Shown here piece after piece: positions 5,960 through 36,624 of a DNA stretch of 44,960 nucleotides. The position numbers and the translations under genes are program-made. The notes under the pieces were generated by a model, which saw only the letters and a program-made list of their open reading frames with translations, had not been told where the DNA came from and ran no database searches. Source of the DNA: Nitrospirota bacterium (GTDB lineage Bacteria; Nitrospirota; JACRHJ01); contig DAHWTK010000002.1 of assembly GCA_027328825.1 (NCBI GenBank), positions 1 through 44,960 of the forward strand, given 5' to 3'. The first letter of the stretch is position 1. Each line of letters begins with the position of its first letter.

Positions 5960-6188
5960 CGATCTTCTCCTCTTCCGCCTGCGGCTGTGGCGCGGGCTCC
6001 GTTACGTGTTCCTTTCCCATCCCGTCGCCCTCCGGGAGAGGGGCTGGTATTCGGGTTACCGTCCAGTCTTTTTCGCCGTCGAACGACCTGGCGATTTCCT
6101 CGCTTACCAAAAACCGCGTCCCCTTGACGAATACCCCGACGCCGTCTATCCTGACCTCGCCGGGTCCCTCGTATTTCAGTATCGGCAT
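5940..6188 (-). CDS. Hypothetical small virion-module protein (carries a family-B repeat in frame)
   Basis: ATG 6188 with GAGGTGAGG RBS, 82 aa. Confidence 0.5.
   Translation of the reverse strand: MPILKYEGPGEVRIDGVGVFVKGTRFLVSEEIARSFDGEKDWTVTRIPAPLPEGDGMGKEHVTEPAPQPQAEEEKIDDAEKI
6021..6044. repeat. Family-B palindromic repeat, in frame in CDS 5940..6188 (..PAPLPEGDGMG..)
   Basis: cccgtcgCCCTCcgggaGAGGGgc hairpin. Confidence 0.85.
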
Positions 6189-6192
6189 GTCC

Positions 6193-6681
6193 TCACCTCG
6201 AAAGAAGGTTTGTTTCCCAAAGTATCTCGATGCCCTTTACAACCGCGAACCTCGGATAATTGCTGCCCTCGTCGTACCCGGAGCCGAGCGGCTTTATCTG
6301 CTTGACGAGGCCGCCAAGGTTATCCGCCCGCTGGACGGCCTGGTCCACCAGCTCCTCAAGCGTCGTGACGTCGATAAAGCCGGGCTGGATATTCGGGAGT
6401 TCGCCTGAGTTCTCGCCATTGTTGAAAATCAGGATGTAGAGCAGGACCTTGTCGCTCATCTCGCCCATCATGCCGCCGATGAGCTTCGGCTCCTGCTCGA
6501 CACGGGTCATGAGGACCATCGGGCACATCTCCGCAGGTATCTCCTTCACTTCCCGGACGCCGTAGCGTATCGTGAGCGCTTTTCCGTACTGAGCCTGGCA
6601 GAATGCGGAGACGTCGGCGTCGGCGGTTATCGCGGCGGAAAGCGCGTCGAGGATGGATATGAAGGACTTATTCAAGGCCAT
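6193..6681 (-). CDS. Putative neck / tail-terminator protein
   Basis: 162 aa between the gp10-like gene and the major tail gene. Called from position only. Confidence 0.3.
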   Translation of the reverse strand: MALNKSFISILDALSAAITADADVSAFCQAQYGKALTIRYGVREVKEIPAEMCPMVLMTRVEQEPKLIGGMMGEMSDKVLLYILIFNNGENSGELPNIQPGFIDVTTLEELVDQAVQRADNLGGLVKQIKPLGSGYDEGSNYPRFAVVKGIEILWETNLLSR

Positions 6682-7120
6682 ATTTGTCCACCGTCTTTTT
6701 CAGTTCCTCGTCCGCGAAGCGAGGAGCGAGGCCGAGAAATTCCTTTGCGGGCGCCGACAGAAACGGGCGCCGCATCCCGATGACGCCGCCCAGTGCGCCG
6801 CGATGGACCCGGCCTTTCTCAATTGCGCCCGCGTATGCCGCCGAGTTCCCGACGTAAGCGACGCCCGGCTCAATGCGGAGTTTCATAAAAAGAGACCGCC
6901 GCAGGTGACCGGTTCGCACCGGGACGGGCCAGCCGCCGATTCCGGGATTGCGCCGATCCTTCGGCGCGATCCGCGGCCCCGACAGGTTGTCGAACGCCTT
7001 TTTGAAGACGTTCGTCGCGATCCTGCCGGCGATGTTGCTCGCCGTCTCGTCGGCGAGCGCCCTCTTCACTCCGGTGAGGGCGTTTAGCGCTTCCTGCGCA
7101 TGGAATTCGAAGCCGCTCAT
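6668..7120 (-). CDS. HK97 gp10-like head-tail joining protein
   Basis: 150 aa containing ..VRTGHLRRSL..VAYVGNSAAYAGAIEKG.., similar to the DTGxLRxS...YAxxVExG signature of the HK97 gp10 family. TAATG overlap with the upstream gene. Confidence 0.6.
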   Translation of the reverse strand: MSGFEFHAQEALNALTGVKRALADETASNIAGRIATNVFKKAFDNLSGPRIAPKDRRNPGIGGWPVPVRTGHLRRSLFMKLRIEPGVAYVGNSAAYAGAIEKGRVHRGALGGVIGMRRPFLSAPAKEFLGLAPRFADEELKKTVDKYGLE

Positions 7121-7896
7121 TACATATCCCCCGGGTCTGGCCCCGGAAGTGGAGGAGCTCCCGGGCCATAAGGCAAATCCTCAGGTAGAAACGACTGGCG
7201 CGGGAAATGACTCGACCGTGCTGTGATAGACGCAAAGGTCGATGGTCTCCCTGCGATACCCTCTATCCATTCGCAGGCCTTGTCGTACTCCGCGAGCGCG
7301 TCCTTTGCCGCCTGCTCCTCGGATAGTCCCACGCGGACATGCGCCTCCGCCGTCCCCTGGAACTCGCGGAGGAGCCTGGCCTTCCGCATCTGCCAGAGCT
7401 GAGCAACGGAAAGCTCGACAATGGCCTTGTTCGCCGCCGCGATCTGAAGCTCGTCGGTCGCGTTGATGATGATGTCATCGCCGTAACGCGCCCGGAGCTC
7501 GAGCAATTTATTGGCGACGATATTCGCGACCTTCGTCTGGAATCCGGCATTATCAGCCGGAGACAGCCCAAACATCGCGGGCGAGAAACCTCGGTCGATG
7601 ACATCCTGGATAAGGTCGGACTGCCCGACGGGCGCGGCTACGGTGGCGGCGTTCACACCGTAAACGAAGTTCCACTGCTGTTGCCCGACGGTAATCAGCA
7701 GAGAATATGCCCCACCCGTAGAAGGCGTGAAGCTCAGGGAATAAACACCCGGTTGACCGGCGACCGGCGTAACCGTCACGACGATAGCGGAGGCGTCGCC
7801 GTCGACGAGGACAAGATTTTTCGTAAAATCCACATCCGTAAGCCCGTCGGGCGCGCCGTAGAAAATGTCGGTTATCGTTTGTCCGGCAATATTCAT
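7120..7896 (-). CDS. Virion protein: beta-rich (Ig-like) N-domain plus helical C-half, possible head-tail adaptor
   Basis: 258 aa, ATG with GAGGA RBS. N-terminal ..VTVTPVAGQPGVYSLSFTPSTGGAYSLLITV.. looks Ig-like. Role inferred from position. Confidence 0.35.
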   Translation of the reverse strand: MNIAGQTITDIFYGAPDGLTDVDFTKNLVLVDGDASAIVVTVTPVAGQPGVYSLSFTPSTGGAYSLLITVGQQQWNFVYGVNAATVAAPVGQSDLIQDVIDRGFSPAMFGLSPADNAGFQTKVANIVANKLLELRARYGDDIIINATDELQIAAANKAIVELSVAQLWQMRKARLLREFQGTAEAHVRVGLSEEQAAKDALAEYDKACEWIEGIAGRPSTFASITARSSHFPRQSFLPEDLPYGPGAPPLPGPDPGDM

Positions 7897-7903
7897 GGGT
7901 TCC

Positions 7904-8704
7904 TCAATTCAAGACGCTCGCGTCTATCCACAGATTAAACCTGAGCACGGTGTTTATCATGGTGCCGTTTCTGATTTCGACCTCTGCCAGATATTTGCCA
8001 ACACGCAAAGAGGTATCGCTCGTCGATAAATTAATCAGGCCGGCACCCGTAGAGGCGTCGGTAACCTGCGCGGTAATGTCGCGGGCAGGGATTGCATACT
8101 GTGAGCTGATATAATTGGATTTCGCCCCGAACCAGACGGTATAACCCGTGATGTCCTTATTTACCGAATACGGTATCGATGCAGAGTCCCCATACGTCAC
8201 GTGGACGTCGTTGCCCTGGGCGACCGTCTCATAGGAAGCCGCGCCCTGGAACGGCAGGATCGTAATCGCTCCTGCGCCCCACTGGCCCGCGCCGTGGACG
8301 CTCGAAAGGTAGCTATTTATCGAGGTGGAGTTGACGTAGACCTGCGGTTCGGCTTCCACGTCTATCGATTCCGTCTCGCTGTCCGCATACATCCCCGTCG
8401 TGTTCTCGTAGGCGGTATAATGCGCGGAACCCGCCGGGCACGTGAACGACCCGCCGTAGACGCCCGACTGGCCGTCCGCCGGGACCATCGTAGTCGCCGA
8501 GCGGAAGACGGTGCCGTCCTGCCGGATAATCGTGAGCTTCGGCTTTAGGCCAGTAACACCCGCGCCCGCCGATGTAATCTGCAACCGGAGCGGTACTACG
8601 TCCCCCGGCGCGGCGACAATCGCCCAGGCTGTCCCGGCTATCAGCAGAGCGAGCGCGGCAAAAACGCCTGTCATTCTGAGCGTAGTGAAAAATCCGCTTT
8701 TCAT
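7904..8704 (-). CDS. Exported beta-rich protein
   Basis: ATG at 8704 preferred over the track's TTG at 8719 (GGAGG 6 nt upstream). N-terminus MKSGFFTTLRMTGVFAALALLIAGTAWA, whose first 12 codons are encoded by a family-C repeat. Confidence 0.6.
   Translation of the reverse strand: MKSGFFTTLRMTGVFAALALLIAGTAWAIVAAPGDVVPLRLQITSAGAGVTGLKPKLTIIRQDGTVFRSATTMVPADGQSGVYGGSFTCPAGSAHYTAYENTTGMYADSETESIDVEAEPQVYVNSTSINSYLSSVHGAGQWGAGAITILPFQGAASYETVAQGNDVHVTYGDSASIPYSVNKDITGYTVWFGAKSNYISSQYAIPARDITAQVTDASTGAGLINLSTSDTSLRVGKYLAEVEIRNGTMINTVLRFNLWIDASVLN
8670..8704. repeat. Family-C repeat, supplies the start codon and N-terminus of CDS 7904..8704
   Basis: gtcattctgagcgtagtgaaaaatccgcttttcat. Compare 9570-9604 and 35808-35839. 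Confidence 0.9.
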
Positions 8705-9422: not shown

Positions 9423-9604
9423 AGACTATGCCCTCCAAGCGGAGCAACGCTATAATCCCGGAGCGGGGCGGCAACCGCCGCCGACGCCCCGGAAACCGGC
9501 GCGGGAGACCCGTTCATATCGCCCATCCAGGCATACGCGCACCCGCCGAATACGGCGAGGAGCAGGAGTGTCATTCTGAGCGTAGCGAAGAATCTGCTTT
9601 GCAT
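9419..9604 (-). CDS. Small exported / lipoprotein-like protein
   Basis: MQSRFFATLRMTLLLLAVFGGCAYA.. The N-terminus is encoded by a family-C repeat. Start is ATG 9604 or TTG 9610. Confidence 0.4.
   Translation of the reverse strand: MQSRFFATLRMTLLLLAVFGGCAYAWMGDMNGSPAPVSGASAAVAAPLRDYSVAPLGGHSL
9570..9604. repeat. Family-C repeat, supplies the start codon and N-terminus of CDS 9419..9604
   Basis: gtcattctgagcgtagcgaagaatctgctttgcat. Confidence 0.9.
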
Positions 9605-14006: not shown

Positions 14007-14025
14007 TTCGTGTCCCTCCTGTTAA

Positions 14026-14063
14026 TTAAAAAGTCTCTGGATTCCCGCTTTTGCGGGGACGAC
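14026..14063. repeat. Family-A palindromic repeat, intergenic (DUF2190-like stop / capsid start)
   Basis: ttaaaaagtctctggaTTCCCGCttttGCGGGGAcgac. Confidence 0.85.
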
Positions 14064-14067
14064 TAAA

Positions 14068-14445
14068 TTAAAGAAGCGCGTGCTCCATCATCAGCTCGCA
14101 GTCTACCGTCGCATTGCCCTGCGCCGAGTCCGCATGCGCGACACCGAAGAGCTTCAGACCCGCCGCATCGACGTTCGTAGCCCAGTTGTTCACCGGGTCC
14201 CAGTAGAGCTTGTCGCCGCCCTTTATCGCGACGGCCGCCTGCGGAAACGCGATTATCTCCGCATCCACGATAAACATGCCGCTTACGCCGGCGGCTATCG
14301 CGGCGAACGCCACGGCAACCAGCGTGTTGCCCGCGGTGCCGGTCAAAACAACGATGTCCATCGGGCCGCACGCGGCGGCGGGAGTCATACGGCGCGTTCT
14401 GTAGCCGCCGCTCGAAGATTTATTTATTGCCTGCACGTTTGCCAT
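14068..14445 (-). CDS. DUF2190-like head protein (decoration/cement type)
   Basis: 125 aa with ..GMFIVDAEIIAFPQAAVAIKGGDKLYWD.. pattern. Placed between the protease and capsid genes, as is typical for this family. Confidence 0.55.
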   Translation of the reverse strand: MANVQAINKSSSGGYRTRRMTPAAACGPMDIVVLTGTAGNTLVAVAFAAIAAGVSGMFIVDAEIIAFPQAAVAIKGGDKLYWDPVNNWATNVDAAGLKLFGVAHADSAQGNATVDCELMMEHALL

Positions 14446-14525
14446 TTGAAAACCCTCCTGTTAAAAGTTCATAACCCCCTCGCTTCGCTTCCCCCTCTTA
14501 TCTTAAGAGGGAGACAGAGGGGACG

Positions 14526-16019
14526 TTACTCCAGCCAGTCGTTTCCGGCGGCGGTTTCGAGCGATTTCGTGCCTTCGCCGGGACCCCCGGTGGTGCGCTT
14601 TTTGTCCTTCATCTCCTCGCCGGGGAGTTCGGCCTGGTCGGGGAACCTCTTCATGGCTTCCTCGGCCTGCACTTTTCCTTCCCTTCTGAGGTCGGCTATC
14701 GACCAGCCGCCGATGAAGGACTTGTAATTCTCAATGTCCTCCGGTCTGTCGCCGCATTTTCCCAGGAGCCGGGCGTTCTTGATGTAGTTGTCTATCAAGC
14801 CGTCCCGGTATGCCTTCCCGGCGGCGGCAAGGACCTTGATGTCCGCGACGGTCACGCCGTCCTTTATACCCAGGACTGCCTTCATGTCCTTCAGCTTCGT
14901 CTCGGTGGCCTCGTTAAGCACCACGAGGTCTTTATGCTTCGTCTCGGTCTCCTCGCGGCGCGCCTTCTCCGCCTCATAAAGTTCCTTGTATTCCATGTTT
15001 TCTCCTTCATCTTCAGGGTTGATGTGATTATGTGAACAACCGGCGCAGGCGGCCTTATCGACCGTAACCGCGCCAGGCTGGGCGCCAAGCCAGACAGACG
15101 AGGTCTCGTATGCCTCGCCGGGAGACTGCCACTCGTCATAAAGGGTATTCGACGGGTTCGACGGGTCTTTTACGGTCACCGGTCCCGAACCGCTAAACGA
15201 GAGCGATACGAAACGGTGGATGCCGCCGTCGATGTTCTTGCGCATGTCCTCGTTGGACGGCATTTTTATCGCGTACATATGCCCCTTCAGGACGGTCATC
15301 ATGCCCATACCCGGAGGGAGCTGAGGCCTTTCGCCTGTCATGGCCTCAAACTCATCCGGCGACATCATGGCCGTCTCTGCGTGGAACCAGGTCCCTTGCG
15401 CAGGCCCTTTCTGGCCGCCGTAACTCCCCGGATGGCCGCCGGAATTGTTAAAATAGCCCTTGCCGGGAAGCGTCCGGGCGAAATCCGAAAGAACGGACTC
15501 GTGAAACCGCTCGCCGTCCCGATCCACCGCGTTATGCGCCACCATAAAAGGAGCAACATAAACATCGTCAGGCGTGAGAGCGGCATGTGAAAAACGGTTT
15601 ATCTTCGACATCATCTCTGGTGTGGCCTCTACGCCCTCACCGAGTTTACGCGGGACGCCCTCGGCGTCCTTCCACTTATAAAGCGTGAGACCTTTAGTAT
15701 GCATTCCGGAAACCGACTTGCCGTCTATCAGATTCAGGAGCGTAGCTGCTGCGGACTCGATGACCGTCGCGCCTTCGGCTCCGGCGCGTTGCTTCGCGGC
15801 GATAACGCCAGAGCGGTAGACCCTCCCGCCTTTAACGATGGGATATTTCCACTCCTGCTCCGTTCCCTTCTTGGCCGGATCGTGGCCAAGAAAACAGTTT
15901 GGAGCGAGCTTTTTGCGCTCGTCGTTTGAGAGACTCCAGCCGGAATTCCTGTCCACTGAGCCACCAGCGATAAGCGTCCGGGCATGAGAGACGCCGGCGC
16001 TATTCAATTCAACCCCCAC
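14526..16019 (-). CDS. Prohead protease (HK97/S78-like) fused to a coiled-coil scaffold-like C-terminus
   Basis: ..AHNAVDRDGERF.., ..IDGGIHRFVSLSF.. and ..YETSSVWLGAQPGA.. resemble S78 protease blocks. C-terminal EYKELYEAEKARREETETKHKDL.. is coiled coil. GTG start with GGAG RBS. Confidence 0.6.
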   Translation of the reverse strand: MGVELNSAGVSHARTLIAGGSVDRNSGWSLSNDERKKLAPNCFLGHDPAKKGTEQEWKYPIVKGGRVYRSGVIAAKQRAGAEGATVIESAAATLLNLIDGKSVSGMHTKGLTLYKWKDAEGVPRKLGEGVEATPEMMSKINRFSHAALTPDDVYVAPFMVAHNAVDRDGERFHESVLSDFARTLPGKGYFNNSGGHPGSYGGQKGPAQGTWFHAETAMMSPDEFEAMTGERPQLPPGMGMMTVLKGHMYAIKMPSNEDMRKNIDGGIHRFVSLSFSGSGPVTVKDPSNPSNTLYDEWQSPGEAYETSSVWLGAQPGAVTVDKAACAGCSHNHINPEDEGENMEYKELYEAEKARREETETKHKDLVVLNEATETKLKDMKAVLGIKDGVTVADIKVLAAAGKAYRDGLIDNYIKNARLLGKCGDRPEDIENYKSFIGGWSIADLRREGKVQAEEAMKRFPDQAELPGEEMKDKKRTTGGPGEGTKSLETAAGNDWLE

Positions 16020-16020
16020 G

Positions 16021-16275
16021 TCAGGCTCCTTTCTTCTTTTCTTCCATGGAGAGAGCCTTTGCCGTCGGAAGCTTGTGCAGCCCGAGCAGGTGGTGGCCGG
16101 TTATCCCGCTACCCTCAGACCGCGACTTGTGCTCATCCGGCGTCGTTTTACCGAAGAGGGCATGTCCCGTGATTGGTTTCGTTTCCGGGGAAGGAGACGG
16201 TTTAAAAATCTTGGTCTCTCCGCGCGCTTCCTTCGGAGACGTTTTTTCTTCGGTTTTCGGTTCCTCTTTCGACAT
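16021..16275 (-). CDS. Lys/Glu/Pro-rich small head-module protein
   Basis: Strong AAGGAGGG RBS. Duplicated ITGHxLxG motif. Confidence 0.5.
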   Translation of the reverse strand: MSKEEPKTEEKTSPKEARGETKIFKPSPSPETKPITGHALFGKTTPDEHKSRSEGSGITGHHLLGLHKLPTAKALSMEEKKKGA

Positions 16276-16284
16276 ATTCCCTCC

Positions 16285-18585
16285 TTAAGTTAATTCGCTC
16301 TGAGCCAGATTGACCGAGCAGGTGCAGCGCGGGTGCGTGTCCTCCACGGGAACCGGGCAATCGTCGATGTCATAGTCGCCTTCGAGCGAGGCGCAGATCG
16401 AACAAGCGCCCGACGCCGGGGAAAAATGGACTCGCTTTATCTTTTCCGCCTTCCACTCGTCGCGCTTTCCCCGTTCCTGGGCGAGGCAGACCTCCGAGCG
16501 GACGAGCCGCTCCCAGTTCCCGTTCCATGCGCCGAACTGTTTCGCAAGGCCGGACGCAATCTCGCGCGGGTTCGCGCCCCGGAGCATACCAGTCTGGAGT
16601 GCGGGTTTTATCTCGTCCTGATAGAACCGTGTCGCGTCGTTCCTCACGAGGTCGAAGCCGTTATTCAAGAGCTTTTTGTAGACCTCCTCGTTGTGGAGGA
16701 GGTCGAGGACGGGAATCCCAACGCCGGACTCCTGCGCCGCCTGGAGGAAGCCAAGCGCGTGGGCCTGCCCGGTATAACTCGACACGGGGCCCTGTGTGGT
16801 CTGCGAGTCTGCGTTCATCTCGTCCGCGAACTGCCGTATGGCGTCCCGGACCTCCCGGAGGTCGGCGGCCGTGAACTCGAAACCCTTAAAAAGTCCCTGG
16901 GTTCCCGCTTTCGCGGGAATGACAAGATTAAGTATCCCGAAGACCTTCTCCTGAAGGCTTACCCAGAGAGCGGAAACGGAAGCGAGGCCCTGCTGGATAA
17001 TCGCCTCGGCCTGGGAGTCCTTGACCTTCGCCTCCTTGCAGACGTGATGCGTTTTGTCATTCCCGCGAAAGTGGGAATCCGGGGATTTAAAAGTCGCTGG
17101 GCCCCCGTTTTCACGGGGGTGACGGACGAACTTTACCGTCGTGAGTACCTTGCCGGTGGCGACATCCGTTTCCGTCTCGATCTCGGTATCGTTTTGGAGT
17201 TGCAGACTATTTGCGATCATCATGTCCGCCTGAGCGTTCAGGAACCGGGCCTGGGCCGCCTGTTGGATGTTATGCAGGTTCGGCGAGACAAGCGAGAGCA
17301 CGTAATCGCCTTTCTTCCATGTGCGGCCACGAGCGCGAAGCACATCGCGGGCGAGAAGATCGAGATGTGGAAGAATTACTGCTTTCCTTTGTTCGGCATC
17401 CTGCATCGCAAGGGCGGACTCCGGGTCGTCCACCGCACCCGCCTGACGGCCGGATGAGATGCCTGCCATCCACGGCTGAAGCCTTGCCTTGGCAAGTATC
17501 TGCTCGACGCATATCCTGTAGGACACCTCTTTTTGCGTGATAATTTTTCCGTCGCCGCCGATGACCTTTATGTCTAATACGCTGTCCTTGTCAAGGACGT
17601 TTATAAAGTCACCGGAAAGGCCATGCCGTTTTCTGTGCATCACCTCGTCGAAATCTTCACGTAAATCCTCGGCAAGTTTTTCCGCCTTTGTTTTGCCGTC
17701 GGCATCGGTGGAATCGAGATATTTTTCTGAACTCCGAAGCTGAACATTGTAGCTGGGGTCTCCGAACCGCTCGAAAATGTTCCGGTCCTGGTTAATTAGC
17801 GTTGCAAAAAGCTGCGCGACAAACTCCATCCCGGAAAGAAGGCTCTCGCCGTAAGGGTCCTGGTTGTTACCATGAAAGGAGAGGTACATCTTGTTCGTGA
17901 GATCGAGCGGGATTTCCATCGGCGCCCAGACGGGATAATATCCGAGCGACGACCATGTCCCGCTCAGGAGATGCGGATCTATAAGCTGGTGCGTACGATA
18001 CGTCGGGTCGTACAGGCCGAGCCGCGGCCAGGGCTTAGGCCGCATCGTCGCGTAGATATTGCCGAACTCGTCATTTTTAAAGAAAAGAAACTTGGAGTCG
18101 CCAATCCTAAGCTGCCGGATGTCTTTCCGGTCTTTCGTCCAGACCTTCTCGGCGAACGCGAAGCCCTGTTCGAATACCTCGTTCTGCCAATTATCGAGAA
18201 AGGCCTGTATGCCAACCTGAAAATCATTAACCTGCACAAAAGTGAAAAACTCGCGAAGCTCCTCCACAATTTTGTCGTTGCCGCCCGTGATTTGAAGTGT
18301 GCCGGTAAGACCTGCCAGAGTCCTGATTATCCCGCCGATAAGAGGTATCGCCTCGCGCATCACCTCGTAAAACTCAGGCGCGACCACGCGCGGGACATAA
18401 CCCTGGAACCACGTTGAGAACGGCCCCTGCGGTGCGGCCTGACGGAGCTGTGCGACGCTGACATTCGGTCTTGCGGGCGGCAAAGGCCACGTCGGGAACG
18501 CCGCCCGACCTGCGCCGGAACTTGCCCCGGACGGGTCTTTGGCATTCCGCAGGTCGAGCGCGTCTATAAGGGGATAACCGCTCAT
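16285..18585 (-). CDS. Portal protein fused to a MuF/SPP1-gp7-like head morphogenesis domain
   Basis: ATG 18585 overlaps the TerL stop (ATGA), with AAGGGGG RBS. The N-terminal ~480 aa are portal-like by size and position. The C-terminus ..VRSEV..FSPASGACSICASL..THPRCTCSV matches the MuF HPxCRC end. Confidence 0.7.
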   Translation of the reverse strand: MSGYPLIDALDLRNAKDPSGASSGAGRAAFPTWPLPPARPNVSVAQLRQAAPQGPFSTWFQGYVPRVVAPEFYEVMREAIPLIGGIIRTLAGLTGTLQITGGNDKIVEELREFFTFVQVNDFQVGIQAFLDNWQNEVFEQGFAFAEKVWTKDRKDIRQLRIGDSKFLFFKNDEFGNIYATMRPKPWPRLGLYDPTYRTHQLIDPHLLSGTWSSLGYYPVWAPMEIPLDLTNKMYLSFHGNNQDPYGESLLSGMEFVAQLFATLINQDRNIFERFGDPSYNVQLRSSEKYLDSTDADGKTKAEKLAEDLREDFDEVMHRKRHGLSGDFINVLDKDSVLDIKVIGGDGKIITQKEVSYRICVEQILAKARLQPWMAGISSGRQAGAVDDPESALAMQDAEQRKAVILPHLDLLARDVLRARGRTWKKGDYVLSLVSPNLHNIQQAAQARFLNAQADMMIANSLQLQNDTEIETETDVATGKVLTTVKFVRHPRENGGPATFKSPDSHFRGNDKTHHVCKEAKVKDSQAEAIIQQGLASVSALWVSLQEKVFGILNLVIPAKAGTQGLFKGFEFTAADLREVRDAIRQFADEMNADSQTTQGPVSSYTGQAHALGFLQAAQESGVGIPVLDLLHNEEVYKKLLNNGFDLVRNDATRFYQDEIKPALQTGMLRGANPREIASGLAKQFGAWNGNWERLVRSEVCLAQERGKRDEWKAEKIKRVHFSPASGACSICASLEGDYDIDDCPVPVEDTHPRCTCSVNLAQSELT
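16885..16923. repeat. Family-A repeat, in frame in portal/MuF linker (..VIPAKAGTQGLFKGF..)
   Basis: cttaaaaagtccctgggTTCCCGCtttcGCGGGAAtgac. Confidence 0.9.
17056..17123. repeat. Full-length family-A element (two hairpins), in frame in portal/MuF linker (..HPRENGGPATFKSPDSHFRGNDK..)
   Basis: gtcaTTCCCGCgaaagtGGGAAtccggggatttaaaagtcgctggGCCCCCGttttcaCGGGGGtgac. Confidence 0.9.
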
Positions 18586-22363: not shown

Positions 22364-22392
22364 AAAAAAATCCAATAAAATCAATGGGTTAT
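22364..22392. repeat. Direct repeat 2 (operator candidate), upstream of the -35
   Basis: aaaaaaaTCCAATAAAATCAATgGgTTAT. Confidence 0.7.
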
Positions 22393-22419
22393 GTTGTTTT
22401 TTTAGGAAATTTTTCGAGG

Positions 22420-22447
22420 CAAAAAAGAAGGGCGGTTTGGCCGCCCT
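22420..22447 (-). terminator. Rho-independent terminator after the early operon
   Basis: Minus strand AGGGCGG-ccaaa-CCGCCCT followed by TCTTTTTTG, 30 nt after the DUF488 stop. Confidence 0.6.
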
Positions 22448-22476
22448 CTTGGGTTTGCAAAAGGGATAATCGAGTC

Positions 22477-22863: not shown

Positions 22864-22871
22864 GAGCCTCC

Positions 22872-23078
22872 TTAAATTTTGATGTCAACCTTGCGTATGC
22901 GGAAGTAAATCTGCCATGCGGCAGGGTTTTCGCTGACCTTCTGTGTCTGGTATGGGAGCATCACGGCCTCGGTTATCGGGCCGTACGGGTGTACCAGGCC
23001 GTCCATCGTCTCCCTCGCCTCTTTCTCCGCGTCCGCTCTGTTCTCTTTGAATACAACAATACTGGTTTCTTCGGTCAT
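22872..23078 (-). CDS. Hypothetical protein
   Basis: 68-aa ORF with ATG and weak AGAGG RBS. Confidence 0.4.
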   Translation of the reverse strand: MTEETSIVVFKENRADAEKEARETMDGLVHPYGPITEAVMLPYQTQKVSENPAAWQIYFRIRKVDIKI

Positions 23079-23205
23079 GCTTTGCCTCTTGACTTTCCGG
23101 CCCGCGCTATGCTATTAAGACAACGGGCCAATGGGGTTAGTGAAAACTGCTCTGTGCCGGCCTGAGGGGCGTCCACTCTTCACGGGGGAGACGCCCCTTA
23201 AATTT

Positions 23206-23955
23206 TTACCTCCTTCCAGGATAAAGTTCGTCAAGTCTTCCGCGGGCCAGCTTAAATATCATGCCCCCCGCGGCGGCGTTATTCACGATAGCGTATTTCT
23301 CCTTCACGTCGGCGAACAGAGCGAAGGCCGGGTCATATGTATTACGGGACAGAATGTAGTTCTCGTCACCGGAGAAAACCAACTCAATGTCCTTGTAAAG
23401 CGCCTTGAGCATCTCAGCATCCTCCGGGAAAAATGCGAGGACGATGACCTTAAAATCCGGACGGGCCTCGGCGATGGACGTGAACTCTAATTTCTCAAGC
23501 TCCTTCAGCGTCTCGCTGTCGAGGCCCGCGTAAAGTTTCTGGTCGATGTCCTCAAGCTCCTCCCAAAGCGACTTCAGGATAACCATGTCGTCCTTGCCGA
23601 CGATCGCGTTATGCGAAAGCTGGATCGCGATTTTTTCGCCCCGAGTCATGCTCCGATCTACATACATGACCAGTATCTCTTCAAGACCGGCGGCTCGCGC
23701 GGCCATGACACGATGATTCCCGGAAAGCACCGAGAATACTCCCCCATCGTTATAGCAAAGCGGAACAGATGTCAGGCCGCCGTCGCGCTTTATGTTGCTC
23801 ATGAGTTGGTCGAACGTAGTCTTGTCCATGTAGCGCGCGTTTTTGTCAGAAAGTTTCAGCCGGGAGGGATCCAAAAGTGCGAGCTTGTACGGCTGACCCT
23901 GGGCCTCCAAGAGAGCGTTCAGCGAGTCTAAGGCTTGCAGTGCTTTTTCTTCCAT
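23206..23955 (-). CDS. ParB-like nuclease-domain protein
   Basis: ..SVPLCYNDGGVFSVLSGNHRVMAARAAGL.. is the ParB N-terminal domain signature. GGAGGTG RBS. Confidence 0.7.
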   Translation of the reverse strand: MEEKALQALDSLNALLEAQGQPYKLALLDPSRLKLSDKNARYMDKTTFDQLMSNIKRDGGLTSVPLCYNDGGVFSVLSGNHRVMAARAAGLEEILVMYVDRSMTRGEKIAIQLSHNAIVGKDDMVILKSLWEELEDIDQKLYAGLDSETLKELEKLEFTSIAEARPDFKVIVLAFFPEDAEMLKALYKDIELVFSGDENYILSRNTYDPAFALFADVKEKYAIVNNAAAGGMIFKLARGRLDELYPGRR

Positions 23956-25286
23956 ATCGAAACCACCTCCTTGAAAGTCATATCGCTAAATTCACCCTGG
24001 TAATTCAGGAACGGTTTCTCCGCACCTTCAGGCGAGCGCTTGACGAGCTTATAGATTCCGCGATATTTCATGCTCTGTTTCGCGGGCGTGAAAGCGGTTG
24101 TGAGAATACACGTCAGACGCGAGAGGAGTTTCTCTTCCAGGACGCGGCGAGTATCCGCGCAAAGCGAAACCATCAGGAGAAGCTTCGCCAGGCGTCTCTC
24201 TTTCGGGGCCGGACGCACGAAATCCGACAGAAGATAAATCGATCCGACCTCGCCCTTTTTCTTGCTGTATGCCTGGAAAATAAGACAGCCGAGCACTTTC
24301 CCATCGACCATCGCCAGGTAGCAGGGACCTCCCGATCCAGGCTCGATGCTCTTGGCCAACCACATCGCCCGGTAATGGTCGATGATGTCCTGCGGGACCT
24401 CGCGGAGCCGGATGTCCGCGCCGTCCGGGATGTTTTCGTCCGGCGCCAGGATAGGGAGTTTCGGGTCGGTTTCCCGGAGTCTGCGGCGGATTATGCCCTT
24501 CGGGAACGGCAGGTTCGAGTAGATAAAGACGCTCTTCTTGCCGAAAAGGTCCATCCGGGCCACGCAAGGGAGCTCAGGGCGCTCCTTGTCGTCGTAGAGC
24601 ACGTAATCGCCCCGGGTCATGCGCCTTACCGTTTCTTCACGCCGTTCGGTCGTGAGCATTTCGTATTTCGGCTTGTCCCAGGCGATGGACTCCTCCAGGC
24701 GCTTGAAAAGCCGCTCGTAGCCGCCCTCATAGGTCGGCAGGAAGCCCACCCTCACCCCCTGCCCCTCTCCCGGAAGGCGAGGGGTCAAGGAAGTGTCGAA
24801 ATAATCATAAACGTCGATGGCGGTATATTCGGCGATTTTGATATGCTCCATCGCCTTCAGGACCTTCGAGAGCGTCTTTGCGAAAAGCTCGTTCCAGTGC
24901 GCCTGGTAATACTCCCACATCCGGACGGCGTAGACGCTGTTCTTCTTCTCGTATTTCAGCATCTCCATCATCAGGAGCAATGCGGCGACAGGGAAAGGTG
25001 ACGTGGCCAGATTTAGCGCGTTGTCAAGGTAAGGTTGAAGCCAGCGCAGTTCTTCGTTCACCACTTGCAGCTTCATTAAGCGGCCAACCAGCGCGTTTCC
25101 CAGGACACAGGAATACAGCGACACGTCGTTACTGTAGAGCCGGGCGTTCGGGGCGTGGCGGGTCAGGATCTGCTCGATGCTGAAGTTGCCGGAACAGCCG
25201 ATGTAACAGTCACGGCCGTCCAAAAGCTTCGCGTGTGTGGCGAAGAACTGCCGGAGCTTCGCGTTTATCGAACCGATGAAGGGCAT
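23928..25286 (-). CDS. Dam-like (D12-class-like) DNA methyltransferase candidate with unknown C-half
   Basis: N-terminus ..CYIGCSGNFSIE..LYSNDVSLYS.. resembles motif I plus the NDxN region of Dam-type enzymes. The DPPY motif is not clear (LPTYEGGY). Adjacent to the ParB-like gene. Confidence 0.35.
   Translation of the reverse strand: MPFIGSINAKLRQFFATHAKLLDGRDCYIGCSGNFSIEQILTRHAPNARLYSNDVSLYSCVLGNALVGRLMKLQVVNEELRWLQPYLDNALNLATSPFPVAALLLMMEMLKYEKKNSVYAVRMWEYYQAHWNELFAKTLSKVLKAMEHIKIAEYTAIDVYDYFDTSLTPRLPGEGQGVRVGFLPTYEGGYERLFKRLEESIAWDKPKYEMLTTERREETVRRMTRGDYVLYDDKERPELPCVARMDLFGKKSVFIYSNLPFPKGIIRRRLRETDPKLPILAPDENIPDGADIRLREVPQDIIDHYRAMWLAKSIEPGSGGPCYLAMVDGKVLGCLIFQAYSKKKGEVGSIYLLSDFVRPAPKERRLAKLLLMVSLCADTRRVLEEKLLSRLTCILTTAFTPAKQSMKYRGIYKLVKRSPEGAEKPFLNYQGEFSDMTFKEVVSIWKKKHCKP
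24748..24786. repeat. Family-B repeat, in frame in CDS 23928..25286 (..PRLPGEGQGVRVG..)
   Basis: caccctcaccccctgCCCCTCTCCcggaaGGCGAGGGGt. Confidence 0.9.
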
Positions 25287-25672
25287 TAATCCTCCTTTTC
25301 CGCGAGGGCGCGGTAGACAGCTGGGCGGGACATATTGTATTGGAGCGCGAGTTGGGCCGTATTCGCGCCATTAAACTCTTTCCGGATGCGGCGTCGCTTC
25401 TCGCGGCTCACGAGTGCCAGCGGGGACGGTATCCGCACGCGCGCGCCGACAAGCTTGCGGACGATCGCCTCCTCAATCTGGCGGCCAAGTTCGTTGCCGT
25501 AGACCTCGGAACAGGAGAGGCAGTGCCAGGGCAGGCCCTCCGCGGCCCCTCCCCTCGCGGGAGAGGGGCGCAGAAGGCAGGCGCGGCAGGCGCGGGCGCG
25601 GGCAACAACGCCCTGGACAACGTGCGCCCGGATGATTATGGCCATTTCTTCGACGCGGCGGCTAATCCGCAT
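25286..25672 (-). CDS. Mor-family transcriptional activator-like protein
   Basis: C-terminus ..SREKRRRIRKEFNGANTAQLALQYNMSRPAVYRAL.. matches the Mor/C-family HTH pattern (R..I...F.G.N...LA..Y.ls...iY.i). Start is uncertain (25645, 25672 or 25732). Confidence 0.6.
   Translation of the reverse strand: MRISRRVEEMAIIIRAHVVQGVVARARACRACLLRPSPARGGAAEGLPWHCLSCSEVYGNELGRQIEEAIVRKLVGARVRIPSPLALVSREKRRRIRKEFNGANTAQLALQYNMSRPAVYRALAEKED
25546..25570. repeat. Family-B repeat, in frame in the Mor-like CDS (..RPSPARGGAAEG..)
   Basis: CCCCTCCCCTCgcggGAGAGGGGcg. Confidence 0.8.
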
Positions 25673-26129
25673 GGGCGGCTTTCCGGGCATCCAGACGATC
25701 GAGCGCGTCGTTGTAGGCTTGCCAGCCCTCAAAACACGTATGTCTCATATCAGTAAGACTGACAACGCAATTTGCATGATGCGCAGCCAAGAATGCACGA
25801 AGGCCATGCTTCCCATAATGACCCGCGTGCTCTTCGGCTGATTTTAAAAATCCCTCGACATTGTCCGTTTCAAACAACATCCCGCCGCGCGGATCACAAG
25901 GAAGAGCGGCTATCAGGCTAAGGAGTTTCAAGGCCGACGTCTCGATAGCCACCAGCCCCTGGGCGGCGGGGGGAATTTCACGCCCATTGTCCATCGTAAG
26001 TTTCGGCGTTTTTGTGCTGCAAAGATGCGTGGGATCATGCGTCCACCAACAGGTGTTCACCCCATAAAATATTTTTTTAGGCTTGGCTTTCCTTACGTCG
26101 TCGATGGTAATATTTTCGATAATTTCCAT
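25662..26129 (-). CDS. Hypothetical protein
   Basis: 155-aa ORF with ATG 26129, abutting the stop of the ASCH gene. Confidence 0.5.
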   Translation of the reverse strand: MEIIENITIDDVRKAKPKKIFYGVNTCWWTHDPTHLCSTKTPKLTMDNGREIPPAAQGLVAIETSALKLLSLIAALPCDPRGGMLFETDNVEGFLKSAEEHAGHYGKHGLRAFLAAHHANCVVSLTDMRHTCFEGWQAYNDALDRLDARKAAHAD

Positions 26130-27089: not shown

Positions 27090-28019
27090 TTATCCCTCCT
27101 GTTTTGTGAGTTCCCGCCAGCGCGCGTTGGAAATTTTCCCGGAATTCAACGCCGTCTGGCTGTTTTCGATGTAGCGCATCGTCGTCTTCACGTCCTCGTG
27201 CCCCATCTTCGCCGCCACGACCAGAGGGTCCTTTATCTGGTCGTAAAGGTCGCTCGCAAAAGTCGAACGCATCTTGTGGACGAAGGCGTCCGCGTCCGGG
27301 ATGCCGAACCGGACGGCGTATTTCTTCAGGATCGCGTTAATGGACTCCTTCGTTATGCCATAACCGCGGCGTCCCCTGTCCCGCGTCAGGGAAGTGAACA
27401 GCGGCTCGTCCATCTTTGAGGCGGCAACGCGTATCTGCCACCAGTTTCGGATGGCCGCGGTGGGGACTCGCTCAAGTTTTACCGTGCGCTCCTTCGCCCC
27501 CTTGCCAAAGAAAGTGAGCGTGCAGGTCTCGGCGGTGAACTGCATCTGCCTGAGCGTCAAAGAAGCGATCTCCGACACGCGGGGCCCGGCGCCGTAAAGC
27601 ACCATGAGAACGGCCAGGTCGCGGATTCCGATCTCCGTGGAGAGGTCCGGCGCCGCGAATATCTGGCGAAGCTCCTCCGTGGAGAACTTGCGCGCGGAGT
27701 GCTGCGCGAACTTCGGGGATGGGATGTCCTGGCATGGGGACGCGCTCAGGTACCGCTCCCGAACGAGCCAGGCGTAAAAATCCCGGACGGCGGCGAGCTT
27801 CACGGCGCGCGAGGAATTGGAATTATGCCGGTCGAAGAAAAGCGATTTCAACCAGTCCTCGACGTCGGCGCGAGTCGCGGAGAAAATTTCATCGCCGCGC
27901 GCGTTCAAAAATTCGGAAAATTTCCTAACATTCCAAATATACGCCGAAACGGTCGCGCGCGAACGACCACGAAGGATAGTGCAATACTCCGAATAAGCTG
28001 TAAGCTCCGAATCAAGCAT
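27090..28019 (-). CDS. XerC/XerD-like tyrosine recombinase
   Basis: SAM-like N-domain (..TVSAYIWNVRKFSEFL..), ..GAGPRVSEI.., ..HKMRSTFAS.. and ..GHEDVKTTMRYI.. catalytic blocks. Trimmed to ATG 28019 (the track starts at 28130). Confidence 0.8.
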   Translation of the reverse strand: MLDSELTAYSEYCTILRGRSRATVSAYIWNVRKFSEFLNARGDEIFSATRADVEDWLKSLFFDRHNSNSSRAVKLAAVRDFYAWLVRERYLSASPCQDIPSPKFAQHSARKFSTEELRQIFAAPDLSTEIGIRDLAVLMVLYGAGPRVSEIASLTLRQMQFTAETCTLTFFGKGAKERTVKLERVPTAAIRNWWQIRVAASKMDEPLFTSLTRDRGRRGYGITKESINAILKKYAVRFGIPDADAFVHKMRSTFASDLYDQIKDPLVVAAKMGHEDVKTTMRYIENSQTALNSGKISNARWRELTKQEG

Positions 28020-28416
28020 TTTCGACCTGAAAATAGCTCCAATTATAGAAACGAGTAAGTACAGGCAATTCCCGGATTGCACCCTCCAAGGGTATGGGGG
28101 GGGGAGCAAATCCATGACGTTGACCATCAAATCCCGATTGACATTGCATGTTTCCCGGAAATAAACACGCTAAGTCATTGATTTTATGTGTCTCGAAAGG
28201 TAGAAAACTGCATATATTCCGTAAAAGATGCAAGGAAAATTCCGGTTTATTCCGGTTCGTTTTCGGCCTTGTCTTTATGTTCGCCGGTAAGAGTCGCCAC
28301 AGAGAGAATTGATTTTTTTTCATAATTAAATAGTTATCTTGTTTATTGTTAAACTTATAAATACCCTGTATAACCCATTTTAAGAAAACCATTCCGCGCC
28401 CTGGAAAAAGTTAGAT

Positions 28417-28726
28417 ATATCGTTTTTTTGCTCCACTTCTCCACCCGAACTGCTAAACTCGCGTAACAATCTTTTTATTTTCAATAAGTTATTTCAGGTG
28501 GCGCAACTTTTATCAGTAACCACTTACAATTAGCCTTTTTAATCCAATTTCTTTTACTTTACAACGGGTTATCTATCGGGTGGAGCAACCCGACAACCCG
28601 TTTTGCTCCACCCTTAATCCACCCATCTCCACCCTTGCTCCACCCTTGCTCCACCCGACTTTTCCTTAATAAAAATAAATAGTTAAGCCATTTTGGGTGG
28701 AGAAGTGGAGCATTTTTAAACGATAT
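28417..28726. repeat. Iteron array bounded by ~30-bp inverted repeats: putative replication origin or recombinase target
   Basis: - Five tandem 10-11 bp units (ttGCTCCACCC, ttaaTCCACCC, atCTCCACCC, ttGCTCCACCC, ttGCTCCACCC) at 28603-28656.
- Single inverted copy at 28578-28587.
- Doublet tgctccacttctccaccc at 28429-28446, with its exact reverse complement at 28695-28712.
- AT-rich stretch at 28661-28694. Confidence 0.55.
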
Positions 28727-31443: not shown

Positions 31444-32502
31444 CTACCATCCCATCACCCTCACTTTCGCCTCTTCCGCTTCCAGGAGCGGAGCGAACTT
31501 CCTCACGTATTTGTGGCCGCCGTCGTCATTGTCGAAACAGAGATAGACGTGGCGACCGGAGCAGTGCGATACGATGCCTTTGAGCCGTTCGTCCGACGGG
31601 TTGCCGCACAGCGCTATCACGTTGTGCGCGCCCGCGTCCACCAGGCTCATCAGGTCGTTTTCGCCCTCGACGATTATCAGCTCGCCCTTTTTGTAAAGCG
31701 CGTCCTGGTTCCAGCCAAGCCAGGACTCCCCGCGCACGGGCCGCTCGGCCAGTTCCTTTTCGCAGGCCCGGCACTTGCCCTTTCTCCCCTGCACGTCGAG
31801 CGGATGCTCCGGACAGACGAACACGCTCTTCGGGAGTTGCATCTCGTATTTTTTGTTCGGATCCTTGCAGGTGAAGTGGACGACGCGCCCTTGCGAGAAA
31901 TGCGGGAAGATGGCGAGACCCGCGAAAAAGTAATCGTCAAGGGACATCTCGCCCTTTTTCGTGCGCTCGACGACGAGGCCGGACGCCAGAATGTCTTCGT
32001 CCGCGAAGCCGGAGCCTCGCAGGTGCGCCAGAAGCTTCCCGTCCGACCATCCGCACGTCATGGCCGCGATCGTCGATTCCTGGTGCTTTCTGGCCTCGAT
32101 AAAGTAGTTTTTCCCCGCCTGCCAGTTGGCGTGATAGTAATCGGCGGCGGCGAGAAAGATTTTGTCCTTGACGCTCGGCGGATCTTCCTTATCCCGTCGC
32201 CCTCCGGGAGAGGGGTTGGGGTGAGGGCGTTCGGAGAGGGTTATTCCGGCCAGCGCCGCGGCCTTCTTGAGCGCCTCCGGGAACTCCAGCCGCTCGTAAA
32301 GGCCGATAAAGCTCAATATGTCGCCCTTCGTGCCGCAGGAATGGCAGACAAAGCCGCCATCCGGCGGGAAAGAGAAACAGTCGTGATGCGCGCAGAAAGG
32401 ACACTCCGCCAGGTGATGGCCCTTCATCGCAAGGCCGGTCAGACGGAGGACCGTCTCTCTAATCGGCAGTGCGTCTTTTACTCGCTGAACGTCTTCGCTC
32501 AT
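31444..32502 (-). CDS. DnaG-type DNA primase (CHC2 zinc finger + TOPRIM)
   Basis: ..CPFCAHHDCFSF..FVCHSCGTKGDILSF.. zinc finger. ..IIVEGENDLMSL.. and ..CFDNDDGG.. TOPRIM motifs. Confidence 0.85.
   Translation of the reverse strand: MSEDVQRVKDALPIRETVLRLTGLAMKGHHLAECPFCAHHDCFSFPPDGGFVCHSCGTKGDILSFIGLYERLEFPEALKKAAALAGITLSERPHPNPSPGGRRDKEDPPSVKDKIFLAAADYYHANWQAGKNYFIEARKHQESTIAAMTCGWSDGKLLAHLRGSGFADEDILASGLVVERTKKGEMSLDDYFFAGLAIFPHFSQGRVVHFTCKDPNKKYEMQLPKSVFVCPEHPLDVQGRKGKCRACEKELAERPVRGESWLGWNQDALYKKGELIIVEGENDLMSLVDAGAHNVIALCGNPSDERLKGIVSHCSGRHVYLCFDNDDGGHKYVRKFAPLLEAEEAKVRVMGW
32193..32227. repeat. Family-B repeat, in frame in primase (..RPHPNPSPGGRR..)
   Basis: cccgtcgCCCTCcgggaGAGGGgttggggtgaggg. 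Confidence 0.9.
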
Positions 32503-35440: not shown

Positions 35441-35537
35441 TTTTCCCCCCTCGACCCGACCGTAAGGATCGCACATAAAAAATATCCAAGAATAACGCCG
35501 CAGACCAGACAACCATACATTTTCATGGCATTCTCCT

Positions 35538-35777
35538 TTAATTCCAGAGCCGGGGCGCAAGATGCCCGGGCCTTTTCCTTAATTCCTGAGGCTGGTCGGG
35601 CGCAGGCGTTATATCTTCATGAACGAAGGGCTTATTTATTTCCTCCCGGCAGCGCACACACTTTACCCGGATTCTGAGATTGGGATCAAAAAGGATATAT
35701 TGAACGTGGATGCGCCAGTCGTGGAAGCCGACCGCACAGAGGATTTTTCCGAGGATTTTCGTAAGTCTCTTTTTCAT
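35538..35777 (-). CDS. Small Cys-containing protein (DUF1660-like N-terminus)
   Basis: MKKRLTKILGKILCAVGFHDW..VKCVRCREE.. resembles the ..C..G.H.W...C.RC.. prophage family. Confidence 0.4.
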   Translation of the reverse strand: MKKRLTKILGKILCAVGFHDWRIHVQYILFDPNLRIRVKCVRCREEINKPFVHEDITPAPDQPQELRKRPGHLAPRLWN

Positions 35778-35807
35778 TCGATCTCTTTAAATTTCGTAAC
35801 GCTATAA

Positions 35808-35839
35808 AAAAGCAGATTCTTCGCTTCGCTCAGAATGAC
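35808..35839. repeat. Family-C repeat, intergenic (opposite orientation to the other two)
   Basis: aaagcagattcttcgcttcgctcagaatgac. Confidence 0.85.
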
Positions 35840-35907
35840 GGTTGTTGCGGCCCGGAGGTGCGGCCCTCCGGGACTGTTATCCCGTCCGAAGGGGGTGAAC
35901 GGGAAAC

Positions 35908-36624
35908 CTAAGCCGCCTGTTCCTCCTCGCGCACATCGAAGAGGGCGTATTTCTGCGTCGTCTCGATGTCGGCGTGACCCATGATGAGCTTGAGCTTCGT
36001 ATAGGCTGCCGCCGGCGAGAGGTTGTCGTGCGAGGAGAGCCAGCGCACGGCGAACGTGTGTCTGAGGTCGTGGAACGAGTATTTCGGCAGTAGCCTGCCG
36101 TCCACGACGTCTGTCAACCCCGCCTGCCTGCACCGGCGGGAAATTACGTCCTGAAGGCTGCGATACGAGAGTCGCTCGCCGTCCGGCCCGCAGAAAAAGG
36201 GGATGCGCGCGCCTTCCTTGCCCTCGCCCTCCGGGAGAGGGGGAACCGTCTCCGGACGGTGGGTGAGGGCTTCCCCGGCCATCCGCTTCGTCTTGAGGTG
36301 ATACTGTATCACCTCCCGGAGCTCCGGGCTTATCGGGACCTCGCGCTCGACGCGCTTTTCCCGCACGGTAATCTTGTCCTTTATCTCGCCGGTGGTCGGA
36401 TTGCAAACATCCTCCACGTCCAGGTGGTGGACGCCGGAAACCCTAAGGCCGGAGTACCAGCCGAACTCGATGATGGCCTTGTCGCGCCGGGCGTCCATCC
36501 CCTTCCGGTCGCGGCCGTGGGCCTTGATTTTCTCGGATAACAAAATTGTTATGAGGCGACGGTCTGCCGCCTTAAAATATTTCGGCAGCTGCATTTTCCT
36601 TTTTACCTGCATTTCCTGATTCAT
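35908..36624 (-). CDS. Short tyrosine recombinase (catalytic domain only)
   Basis: Trimmed to ATG 36624 (GGAGGG RBS). ..GWYSGLRVSG.., ..HDLRHTFA.. and ..GHADIETTQKY.. blocks. No N-terminal core-binding domain. Confidence 0.7.
   Translation of the reverse strand: MNQEMQVKRKMQLPKYFKAADRRLITILLSEKIKAHGRDRKGMDARRDKAIIEFGWYSGLRVSGVHHLDVEDVCNPTTGEIKDKITVREKRVEREVPISPELREVIQYHLKTKRMAGEALTHRPETVPPLPEGEGKEGARIPFFCGPDGERLSYRSLQDVISRRCRQAGLTDVVDGRLLPKYSFHDLRHTFAVRWLSSHDNLSPAAAYTKLKLIMGHADIETTQKYALFDVREEEQAA
36221..36268. repeat. Family-B repeat, in frame in the short recombinase (..PPLPEGEGKEG..)
   Basis: ccctcgCCCTCcgggaGAGGGggaaccgtctccggacggtgggtgaggg. Confidence 0.85.

Follow-up and report, generated by a model that had tools for sequence, protein, structure and literature searches.

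Knowledge of the repeat family named BoxC, PIT or TM goes back to the 1990s (Bachellier; Hoyne and Maher 2000). The present analysis concerns eight copies of such a G/C-rich repeat, called TM (triplex motif) below, in a Nitrospirota contig of 44,960 nt (DAHWTK010000002.1, referred to as the window), which is probably a temperate phage of a Nitrospirota bacterium and in which most of the copies were found to be read through inside genes. Holder et al. 2015 (PMC4666352) described the motif as CCCTCNCCC-N3-6-GGGNGAGGG-N3-GGGNGAGGG with frequent mismatch in the stem, and reported 3,610 copies in 262 proteobacterial genomes and 23 copies in the chromosome of Escherichia coli K-12. According to the same paper, the single strand was found to form a triplex in vitro, the PIT/TM elements were found to contain neither promoter nor terminator activity, and the TMs were tied to raised local instability or rearrangement in E. 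coli, with a polymerase block in vitro. The TMs of E. coli were always intergenic and were unassociated with phages, plasmids and transposons (PMC4666352). In that paper and in the further literature searched, neither a partner protein nor a way in which BoxC/PIT/TM repeats spread was found to be described. The published view is of an intergenic repeat unlinked to mobile elements, and the window differs from it: a known repeat family was found in a new context, namely in Nitrospirota and on a phage, where the copies are dense and are translated as parts of genes.

The TM was found to be a real and well-delimited feature of the window. A 24-nt core, GCCCCTCTCCCGGANGGCGAGGGG, was matched seven times at up to 3 mismatches (6021-, 19762+, 21692+, 24761+, 25546-, 32193- and 36220-, with the strand after the position), and the number of matches expected from 100 dinucleotide-preserving shuffles was 0. 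An eighth, variant copy at 21867-21912 (+) was obtained from a looser scan and the three-arm pattern. All eight copies could be aligned, jointly with copies from Nitrospirae genomes, so the first-pass annotation, made from the letters of the window, was right to treat them as one family. The consensus of the window copies was CCCTCACCCC-NN-(G)CCCCTCTCCC-GGA-GGGCGAGGGG, often followed by T.AAGGAAG, and the three arms (CCCTCACCC / CCCCTCTCCC / GGGCGAGGGG) were complete in six of the eight. Two of these three-arm copies (21867 and 36220) were found to contain a first loop of 12-17 nt with a mini-hairpin inside, and the copies at 6021 and 25546 were found to contain two hairpin arms only, the third arm being missing. 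The copies, together with the hairpin that adjoins one of them, are as follows.

6021-6044, minus strand: TM copy with hairpin arms only, read as ..APLPEGDG.. in ORF 5940-6188
19750-19785, plus strand: three-arm TM copy, with the minus-strand reading ..NPSPSGRGAAGEG.. in the 682-aa terminase-like ORF
21652-21676: intrinsic-terminator-like hairpin, judged by eye
21681-21715, plus strand: three-arm TM copy, intergenic, between the stop of ORF 21725-22279 and the terminator-like hairpin
21867-21912, plus strand: variant TM copy with a 12-nt first loop and mini-hairpin GGCCTTCGGCC, read as ..RPSRGEGGRRPGEGE.. in ORF 21725-22279
24749-24797, plus strand: three-arm TM copy with AAGGAAG tail, read as ..TSLTPRLPGEGQGVRV.. 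in the DAM-like/GNAT gene
25546-25569, minus strand: degenerate TM copy with hairpin arms only and 3 mismatches, read as ..RPSPARGGAAE.. in the Mor-family gene
32193-32227, minus strand: three-arm TM copy, read as ..RPHPNPSPGGRRD.. in the primase linker between Zn-ribbon and Toprim
36220-36269, minus strand: TM copy with a 17-nt first loop and mini-hairpin ACCGTCCGGAGACGGT, read as ..THRPETVPPLPEGEGKEG.. in the tyrosine recombinase

The ends of the element were sharp and its flanks were not conserved in the 136 TM copies that were compared. The predicted DNA hairpins of the window copies were imperfect and modest and exceeded shuffles in stability to a moderate degree only (z-scores of -0.3 to -3.3), and hairpin stability alone (Watson-Crick folding only) gave no separation of the window copies from shuffled sequence. 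A scan of the window with Rfam (E <= 1) returned no family for TM, the matches being a tRNA, int-alpA and a sub-threshold RsmY only. The density that had been called striking was found to be so: the eight copies of the 45-kb window amount to one per 5.6 kb, which is about 35 times the density in E. coli K-12 (about one per 200 kb), and the viral contigs that carry the motif (more than 120) usually contained 1-2 copies each.

To judge from the sequence, the window copies are members of the known G/C-rich intrastrand-triplex family BoxC = PIT = TM and do not form a new family, an identity that had not been recognised in the first-pass annotation. Apart from the two copies with hairpin arms only, they were found to share the three-arm architecture CCCTCNCCC - loop - GGGNGAGGG - loop - GGGNGAGGG in nearly the same sequence, with frequent stem mismatch and with interspersed copies in both orientations in many taxa. 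When the second loop of the published TMECO pattern was relaxed to 3-5 nt, only 21681-21714 was an exact match, and the other five three-arm copies deviated by 1-2 mismatches or by longer loops. No window copy was seen to fit a strict N3 second loop; the second loop of the window copies was 4-5 nt by eye instead of 3, and the long first loops with nested hairpins of two copies are a further difference from the described family. An exact 33-base pattern was found in more than 119 genomic loci of many phyla and in more than 120 viral loci. The taxa with this pattern included Xanthomonadales, Pseudomonas, Betaproteobacteria, Planctomycetota, Acidobacteriota, Chloroflexota, Geobacter/Geomonas, Verrucomicrobiota and Nitrospirae, by which the range of the family is extended to Nitrospirota, Planctomycetota, Chloroflexota and others. 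The window TMs were multi-copy, interspersed, present in both orientations and near-identical across taxa, as the family is. The intergenic, off-phage placement reported for E. coli was violated in the window, and this placement is a reported property and not a structural definition.

Every gene from about 1,160 to 37,900 was found on the minus strand. Seven of the eight copies lay in frame inside open reading frames (ORFs), and the copy at 21681-21715 was the single intergenic one, as had been noted before. The earlier statement that the repeat is read through in at least eight different genes had to be corrected to seven ORFs, six of which were verified as real genes by Pfam or by homologues. 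The seven ORFs are listed below.

5940-6188, minus strand: ORF of 82 aa, with codon usage best in its frame on both sides of the repeat
18582-20630, minus strand: terminase-large-subunit-like ORF of 682 aa, just upstream of the portal gene, with Walker A/B-like motifs by eye
21725-22279, minus strand: gene of a conserved Cys-rich protein, function unassigned, with 4 homologues
23928-25286, minus strand: DAM-like-phage1 + GNAT-phage-like gene (PF22555 + PF22559)
25286-25732, minus strand: Mor-family activator gene (PF08765)
31444-32502, minus strand: DnaG-type primase gene, Zn-ribbon + Toprim
35908-36783, minus strand: tyrosine recombinase gene (PF00589)

The 682-aa terminase-like ORF gave no profile hit, and a profile search of PDB sequences with it was also empty. 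No homologue was found for ORF 5940-6188, which has the status of a candidate gene with support from codon usage only. The true start of the recombinase ORF 35908-36783 is probably the ATG at 36624, and an Rfam int-alpA RNA match at 36640-36705 (-), whose 43.9 bits exceed the gathering score, shares positions with the 5' part of this ORF.

The class of peptide was found to be set by the frame and not by the orientation, because the element is nearly palindromic. The copies read as PSPxGRG were found in the orientations +, -, - and +, and those read as PLPEGEG in the orientations +, - and -, so that the earlier assignment of one peptide to each orientation could not be upheld. Five of the six frames of the translated TM consensus contained no stop codon, and the requirement for a stop-free frame is therefore a weak filter. 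It had been proposed that the repeat survives only in stop-free frames, a condition by which hardly any insertion would be excluded. ORFs covered 93% of the window, and with random placement the probability that at least seven of the eight copies lie in ORFs was 0.89; the observed seven of eight is therefore the random expectation.

The comparison with homologues identifies the TM copies as secondary additions at permissive sites, in loops or linkers, and some of them (primase linker, ORF 21725 and DAM-like loop) would be replacements rather than pure insertions. The earlier suggestion that the repeat had entered coding DNA was thereby supported, since homologues lacked the peptide or were gapped exactly at the repeat and the intergenic copy was a clean insertion. 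The DAM-like, terminase-like and primase proteins were found to carry it in loops or linkers. The TM segment was absent from all 23 aligned DAM-like homologues (38-66% identity), which read YY-PRPDG-VSIGFLPTY where the window protein reads YFDTSLTPRLPGEGQGVRVGFLPTY. In the AlphaFold2 model of the DAM-like protein the TM segment was a coil between a helix and a strand, with a pLDDT by ten-residue block of 75/74, the two blocks before it having 88/90. The TM was also absent from all 16 viral homologues of the terminase-like protein, and its site was a linker that varies greatly in length and is bordered by two conserved blocks. The comparison with a Nitrospirae prophage (L120; loci fetched for comparison are cited by such numbers), one homologue in each case, gave a 24-aa gap exactly at the repeat for the Mor protein and a 17-aa gap exactly at the repeat for the integrase. 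The primase homologue contained a linker of equal length and different sequence. The nearest homologue of ORF 21725 (75% identity) was found to contain the repeat as well, two further homologues contained a partly similar segment of similar length, and the most distant one was without 26 residues there. Compared with the homologous loci L259 and L261, the intergenic copy was a clean insertion of 33-36 nt without target duplication, overlapping 2-3 C residues already present.

More homologues were sought in viral contigs, where only distant relatives of the primase and the integrase were found and none of the Mor protein. The integrase had no match among PDB sequences, and megablast of window positions 16000-26000 against GenBank phages returned no relative.

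The TM copies came probably from the repeat pool of the host, as the distribution of the window repeats suggests. The subfamily with the AAGGAAG tail was found at four loci only, three of them from Nitrospirae/Nitrospirota metagenome-assembled genomes (MAGs). The 50-nt unit at 24749-24797 was 96-98% identical to copies in the Nitrospirae/Nitrospirota MAG loci L262 and L263, and the MAGs with this unit contained no genes in common with the phage. The locus L053 (Nitrospirae MAG DBS1-3.bin157) was found to contain a mosaic cluster with every repeat family of the window, and at 3020-3068 it also contained the long-loop variant of the 21867 subfamily. It is this joint presence of all window repeat families in a Nitrospirae MAG from which a probable host origin is concluded. 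The closest protein homologues were from Nitrospirae and Thermodesulfovibrionales. The phage genes included three tyrosine recombinases and a CI-like repressor, so the phage is likely to be temperate and to be exposed, as a prophage, to the repeat dynamics of its host. The recombinases are encoded at 27090-28130, 35908-36783 and 39676-40761, and the CI-like helix-turn-helix protein at 38268-38657.

Read-through of TM peptides was not confined to the window. Because ORF-spanning and GC3 (third-codon-position GC) statistics discriminate poorly in GC-rich DNA, where even the intergenic window copy has a long spurious ORF, Pfam-verified examples from other genomes were used instead, as listed below.

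L194: TM read-through in TerL, in the ATPase-nuclease linker
L159: TM read-through in Portal_Mu, just after the domain
L167: TM read-through in Mu-like_Pro, inside the domain
L320: TM read-through in an HsdM methylase, twice inside
L001: TM read-through in MetRS

In rough statistics over other genomes, TMs were about 2-3 fold depleted in coding-like frames relative to random positions and were still present there. No account of TM peptides translated inside genes was found in the literature searched.

In the MetRS of L001 the in-frame linker insert was found to be a DUF559 domain with inverted TM flanks, at positions 2110-2650 of the locus, and several DUF559 cassettes were observed in frame inside MetRS or long restriction-modification-like ORFs. 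The loci that had been chosen for TM contained 15 DUF559 tblastn hits, 14 of which were full-length ORFs, and all 15 lay 13-66 nt from a TM hairpin core. The usual layout was a TM (G-rich strand), 10-110 nt, DUF559, 0-110 nt and an inverted TM. In a reciprocal set of 80 DUF559 loci (L433-L512), fetched by protein similarity alone, a TM was found within 300 nt in 58, and on both sides in 38. The upstream TM had one orientation in 41 of 47 cases, the downstream TM had the inverse orientation in 41 of 49, and the same pattern gave 0 hits in the shuffled loci. The 33 two-sided cassettes had a length of 391-637 bp (median 442) with the TMs as inverted ends, and no target duplication was found at 29 of the 33. 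The association was found to extend to E. coli, in which TMECO number 9 lies 168 nt downstream of the DUF559 gene ycjD (L432, NC_000913 1351205-1351760); four of the five close TM pairs of K-12, as read from Holder Table 1 (PMC4666352), are oriented as in the cassettes. The ycjD region is present in 3,377 of 5,426 E. coli genomes. A cassette was present in the Nitrospirae MAG locus L317, and TM-flanked DUF559 genes were found in five viral contigs. An array-like arrangement unseen elsewhere was observed in Geomonas paludis (L032, 3732-4824), where seven TMs with a regular spacing of about 137 nt lie on both sides of a DUF559 ORF.

DUF559 is a predicted Vsr-like PD-(D/E)XK nuclease (PMC1189080), and a Caulobacter DUF559 protein was reported to cause DNA damage in vivo and SOS induction (PMC12907096). 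Vsr-like folds are reported to serve as homing endonucleases (PMC3239194, PMC2677866). The genomic association suggests that DUF559 is a candidate mobilising enzyme for TM. This link is a new lead that was in no paper found, the DUF559 literature searched having contained none that concerns repeats, and it would bear on how TMs spread and why TM loci are unstable.

The best explanation of the whole, which we hold to be reasonably probable, is that the window copies are members of the triplex family that were derived from the host during lysogeny, were kept where they preserve the frame, and owe their spread to DUF559. The phage, resident as a prophage, would have acquired TMs from the repeat pool of its host, and the insertions would have landed roughly at random in a genome with 93% ORF cover. 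Copies would persist where the unit of about 36 nt, or 12 codons, keeps the frame and is free of stops, and the tolerated peptide would be flexible, rich in Pro, Gly, Ser, Glu and Arg, and placed in a surface loop or interdomain linker. The engine of spread would be a host-encoded DUF559 nuclease acting in trans on TMs, by which a break or nick would be made and repaired by the copying of another TM, in a homing-like manner and without target duplication. A more far-reaching proposal is offered tentatively: TMs may form the inverted ends of a very small selfish cross-phylum element of about 440 bp, with single and paired TMs as its non-autonomous derivatives. The element would encode DUF559 and would enter linkers of essential, restriction-modification and phage genes without target duplication and often in frame, its copies would be ferried between hosts by phages such as the present one, and the conserved mismatch in the TM stem may be the feature recognised by a mismatch-type (Vsr-like) nuclease.

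Several points weigh against this explanation. The window was found to contain no DUF559 gene (hmmsearch E > 0.3) and its copies were solo TMs, so that action in trans has to be assumed. DUF559 may just as well be a passenger with TM pairs as its target, or the TMs could be expression signals for DUF559. A crude comparison within E. coli of the presence of ycjD with the number of TM-like matches gave no clear link, and no stable triplex was found in double-stranded DNA or in vivo by Holder et al. (PMC4666352). A single pair of filled and empty sites was found, with the direction given by parsimony over four mosaic loci. The replacements of similar length (primase and ORF 21725) and the likeness of the empty site to the 3' flank of the element would fit homology-driven patching without a dedicated enzyme.

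Such patching is the main rival and is judged unlikely. It supposes that stalled forks or breaks give rise to template switching or gene conversion, in which the structure-prone TM is the donor and new copies are placed where the sequence is already similar to the TM ends. The absence of target duplication at the intergenic insert, its overlap with 2-3 pre-existing C residues and the equal-length replacements in the primase and in ORF 21725 are in its favour. The empty site already contained GGGTAAAGAGGTTA, similar to the extended 3' end of the element in L053, and the ancestral codons for PR..GV in the DAM-like gene resembled both TM ends; the published link of TMs with local instability and the polymerase block in vitro (Holder et al., PMC4666352) also agree with it. 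However, the microhomologies were short and concerned one to three cases, and copying without an enzyme leaves unexplained both the near-identity of 35 nt across phyla and the tight, oriented bracketing of DUF559.

It is improbable that the copies were kept for a function in the phage, such as a recombination hotspot with host copies, a pause of replication or transcription, or an RNA hairpin. The TM density far above that of other viral contigs, the copy flanked immediately by a stop codon and a terminator-like hairpin, and the rearrangements linked to TMs in E. coli (PMC4666352) would be in line with such a function. It is opposed by the use of both orientations and of four or more frames, by positions that were not conserved in homologous phages, by two degenerate copies, by the lack of promoter or terminator activity in PIT elements (PMC4666352) and by hairpin stabilities that were mostly unremarkable over the z-score range given above.

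The first-pass annotation had pointed to a REP-associated tyrosine transposase (RAYT), and a REP/REPIN-like element moved by such a host Y1/HUH enzyme is regarded as very improbable. The TM is short, hairpin-bearing, present in both orientations and without target duplication, as this would predict, and a Y1_Tnp gene of the IS200/IS605 type was found directly downstream of the ORF 21725 homologue in L261 (10886-11314). However, no link of this gene to TM copies was found, a Y1_Tnp tblastn search returned only L261 itself and L060 among several hundred fetched loci, none was present in the window, and the gene found beside TMs was DUF559 and not Y1. The TM consensus contained no GTAG head, and REPs are species-specific whereas the TM is cross-phylum. 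Membership in REP/REPIN was rejected, neither GTAG nor a repeat-flanked Y1 gene having been found.

That the copies are convergent low-complexity linkers or an assembly artefact instead of a mobile repeat is scarcely credible: the peptides are Pro/Gly-rich like natural linkers and the contig is from a metagenome, but the DNA identity covers synonymous positions and the 50-nt unit of unrelated Nitrospirae loci, identical DNA is translated in more than one frame and from either strand, and on each side of the repeat the frames lead on into sequence shared with homologues.

Other repeats were also observed in the window. A second family, GGGTTCCCGCTTTCGCGGGAATGAC, was found at 3694-3740, 4479-4525, 14022-14068, 16882-16928, 17054-17093 and 17082-17128, with three copies at gene boundaries and three read through in the 774-aa portal + minor-head ORF 16285-18609. 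The Thermodesulfovibrionales DAM-like homologue P0036 was found to contain an in-frame insertion, ..HSREGGNPS.., which resembles the GGGTTCCCGCTTTCGCGGGAATGAC repeat type. A third family, GTCATTCTGAGCGTAGCGAAGAATC, was found at 8663-8701, 9570-9600 and 35808-35846, mostly intergenic, and also in L053 at 6466-6498. A different, triplex-like-looking motif, CCCCCTCTTATCTTAAGAGGGAGACAGAGGGGA, was found at a gene boundary (14490-14528) and is common to L053 (3119-3157). In the latter locus, positions 2990-3270 contained four or five short repeat types in tandem and resembled the BIME clusters of enterobacteria.

Among the remaining features, a tRNA-Gly (anticodon ACC) was found at 21459-21531 (-), between the early and the late gene blocks. 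Iteron-like direct repeats, TTGCTCCACCC, were present in three copies at 28603-28656, together with an inverted pair at 28429-28452 / 28689-28712. This region (28429-28712) lies in the gap upstream of a 707-aa ORF with a match to the C-terminal portion of a PHROG primase family, and it may act as an origin or in regulation. The left end (43-1022) contained tandem repeats in coding sequence, diverged from one another and with a period of about 150 nt or about 630 nt, which adjoin an 841-aa protein that matches tape-measure families.

Compared with the BoxC/PIT/TM repeats of E. coli, the window TMs differ in their place on a phage and inside ORFs, as well as in their density. In behaviour they resemble the Rickettsia palindromic elements (RPEs; Ogata et al. 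2000, reviewed in PMC10969869), which are likewise palindromic, lie in frame in unrelated genes and are translated as an extra peptide at tolerated positions, and TMs would be a cross-phylum source of linker insertions in proteins akin to these. The likeness is in behaviour only: RPEs are elements of about 100-150 bp which are AT-rich, confined to Rickettsia and unrelated in sequence, whereas the TM is a G/C-rich, cross-phylum unit of about 36 nt which is found on phage, and it therefore lies outside the size and the Rickettsia-specific range by which RPEs are defined. With the REP/REPIN elements and their RAYT the TM shares a short, hairpin-forming, interspersed unit without target duplication, and differs in that it has no GTAG head, no RAYT/Y1 link and is neither species-specific nor extragenic-only.

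If the cassettes are autonomous, the inverted TM pairs and solo TMs would relate to them as MITEs relate to insertion sequences. However, MITEs are defined by terminal inverted repeats with a target-site duplication and a length of 50-500 bp, whereas no duplication was found at the filled/empty site or at 29 of the 33 cassettes, the solo TM has only about 36 nt, and the enzyme in question is a Vsr-like PD-(D/E)XK nuclease and not a DDE transposase. The Vsr-like (EDxHD) homing endonucleases, such as I-Bth0305I, share the Vsr-type fold and the life of a selfish element inside genes, including phage genes (PMC3239194, PMC2677866). These nucleases belong to group I introns or inteins, which are removed by splicing, whereas the TM and the TM-DUF559-TM units were without evident splicing and were translated through.

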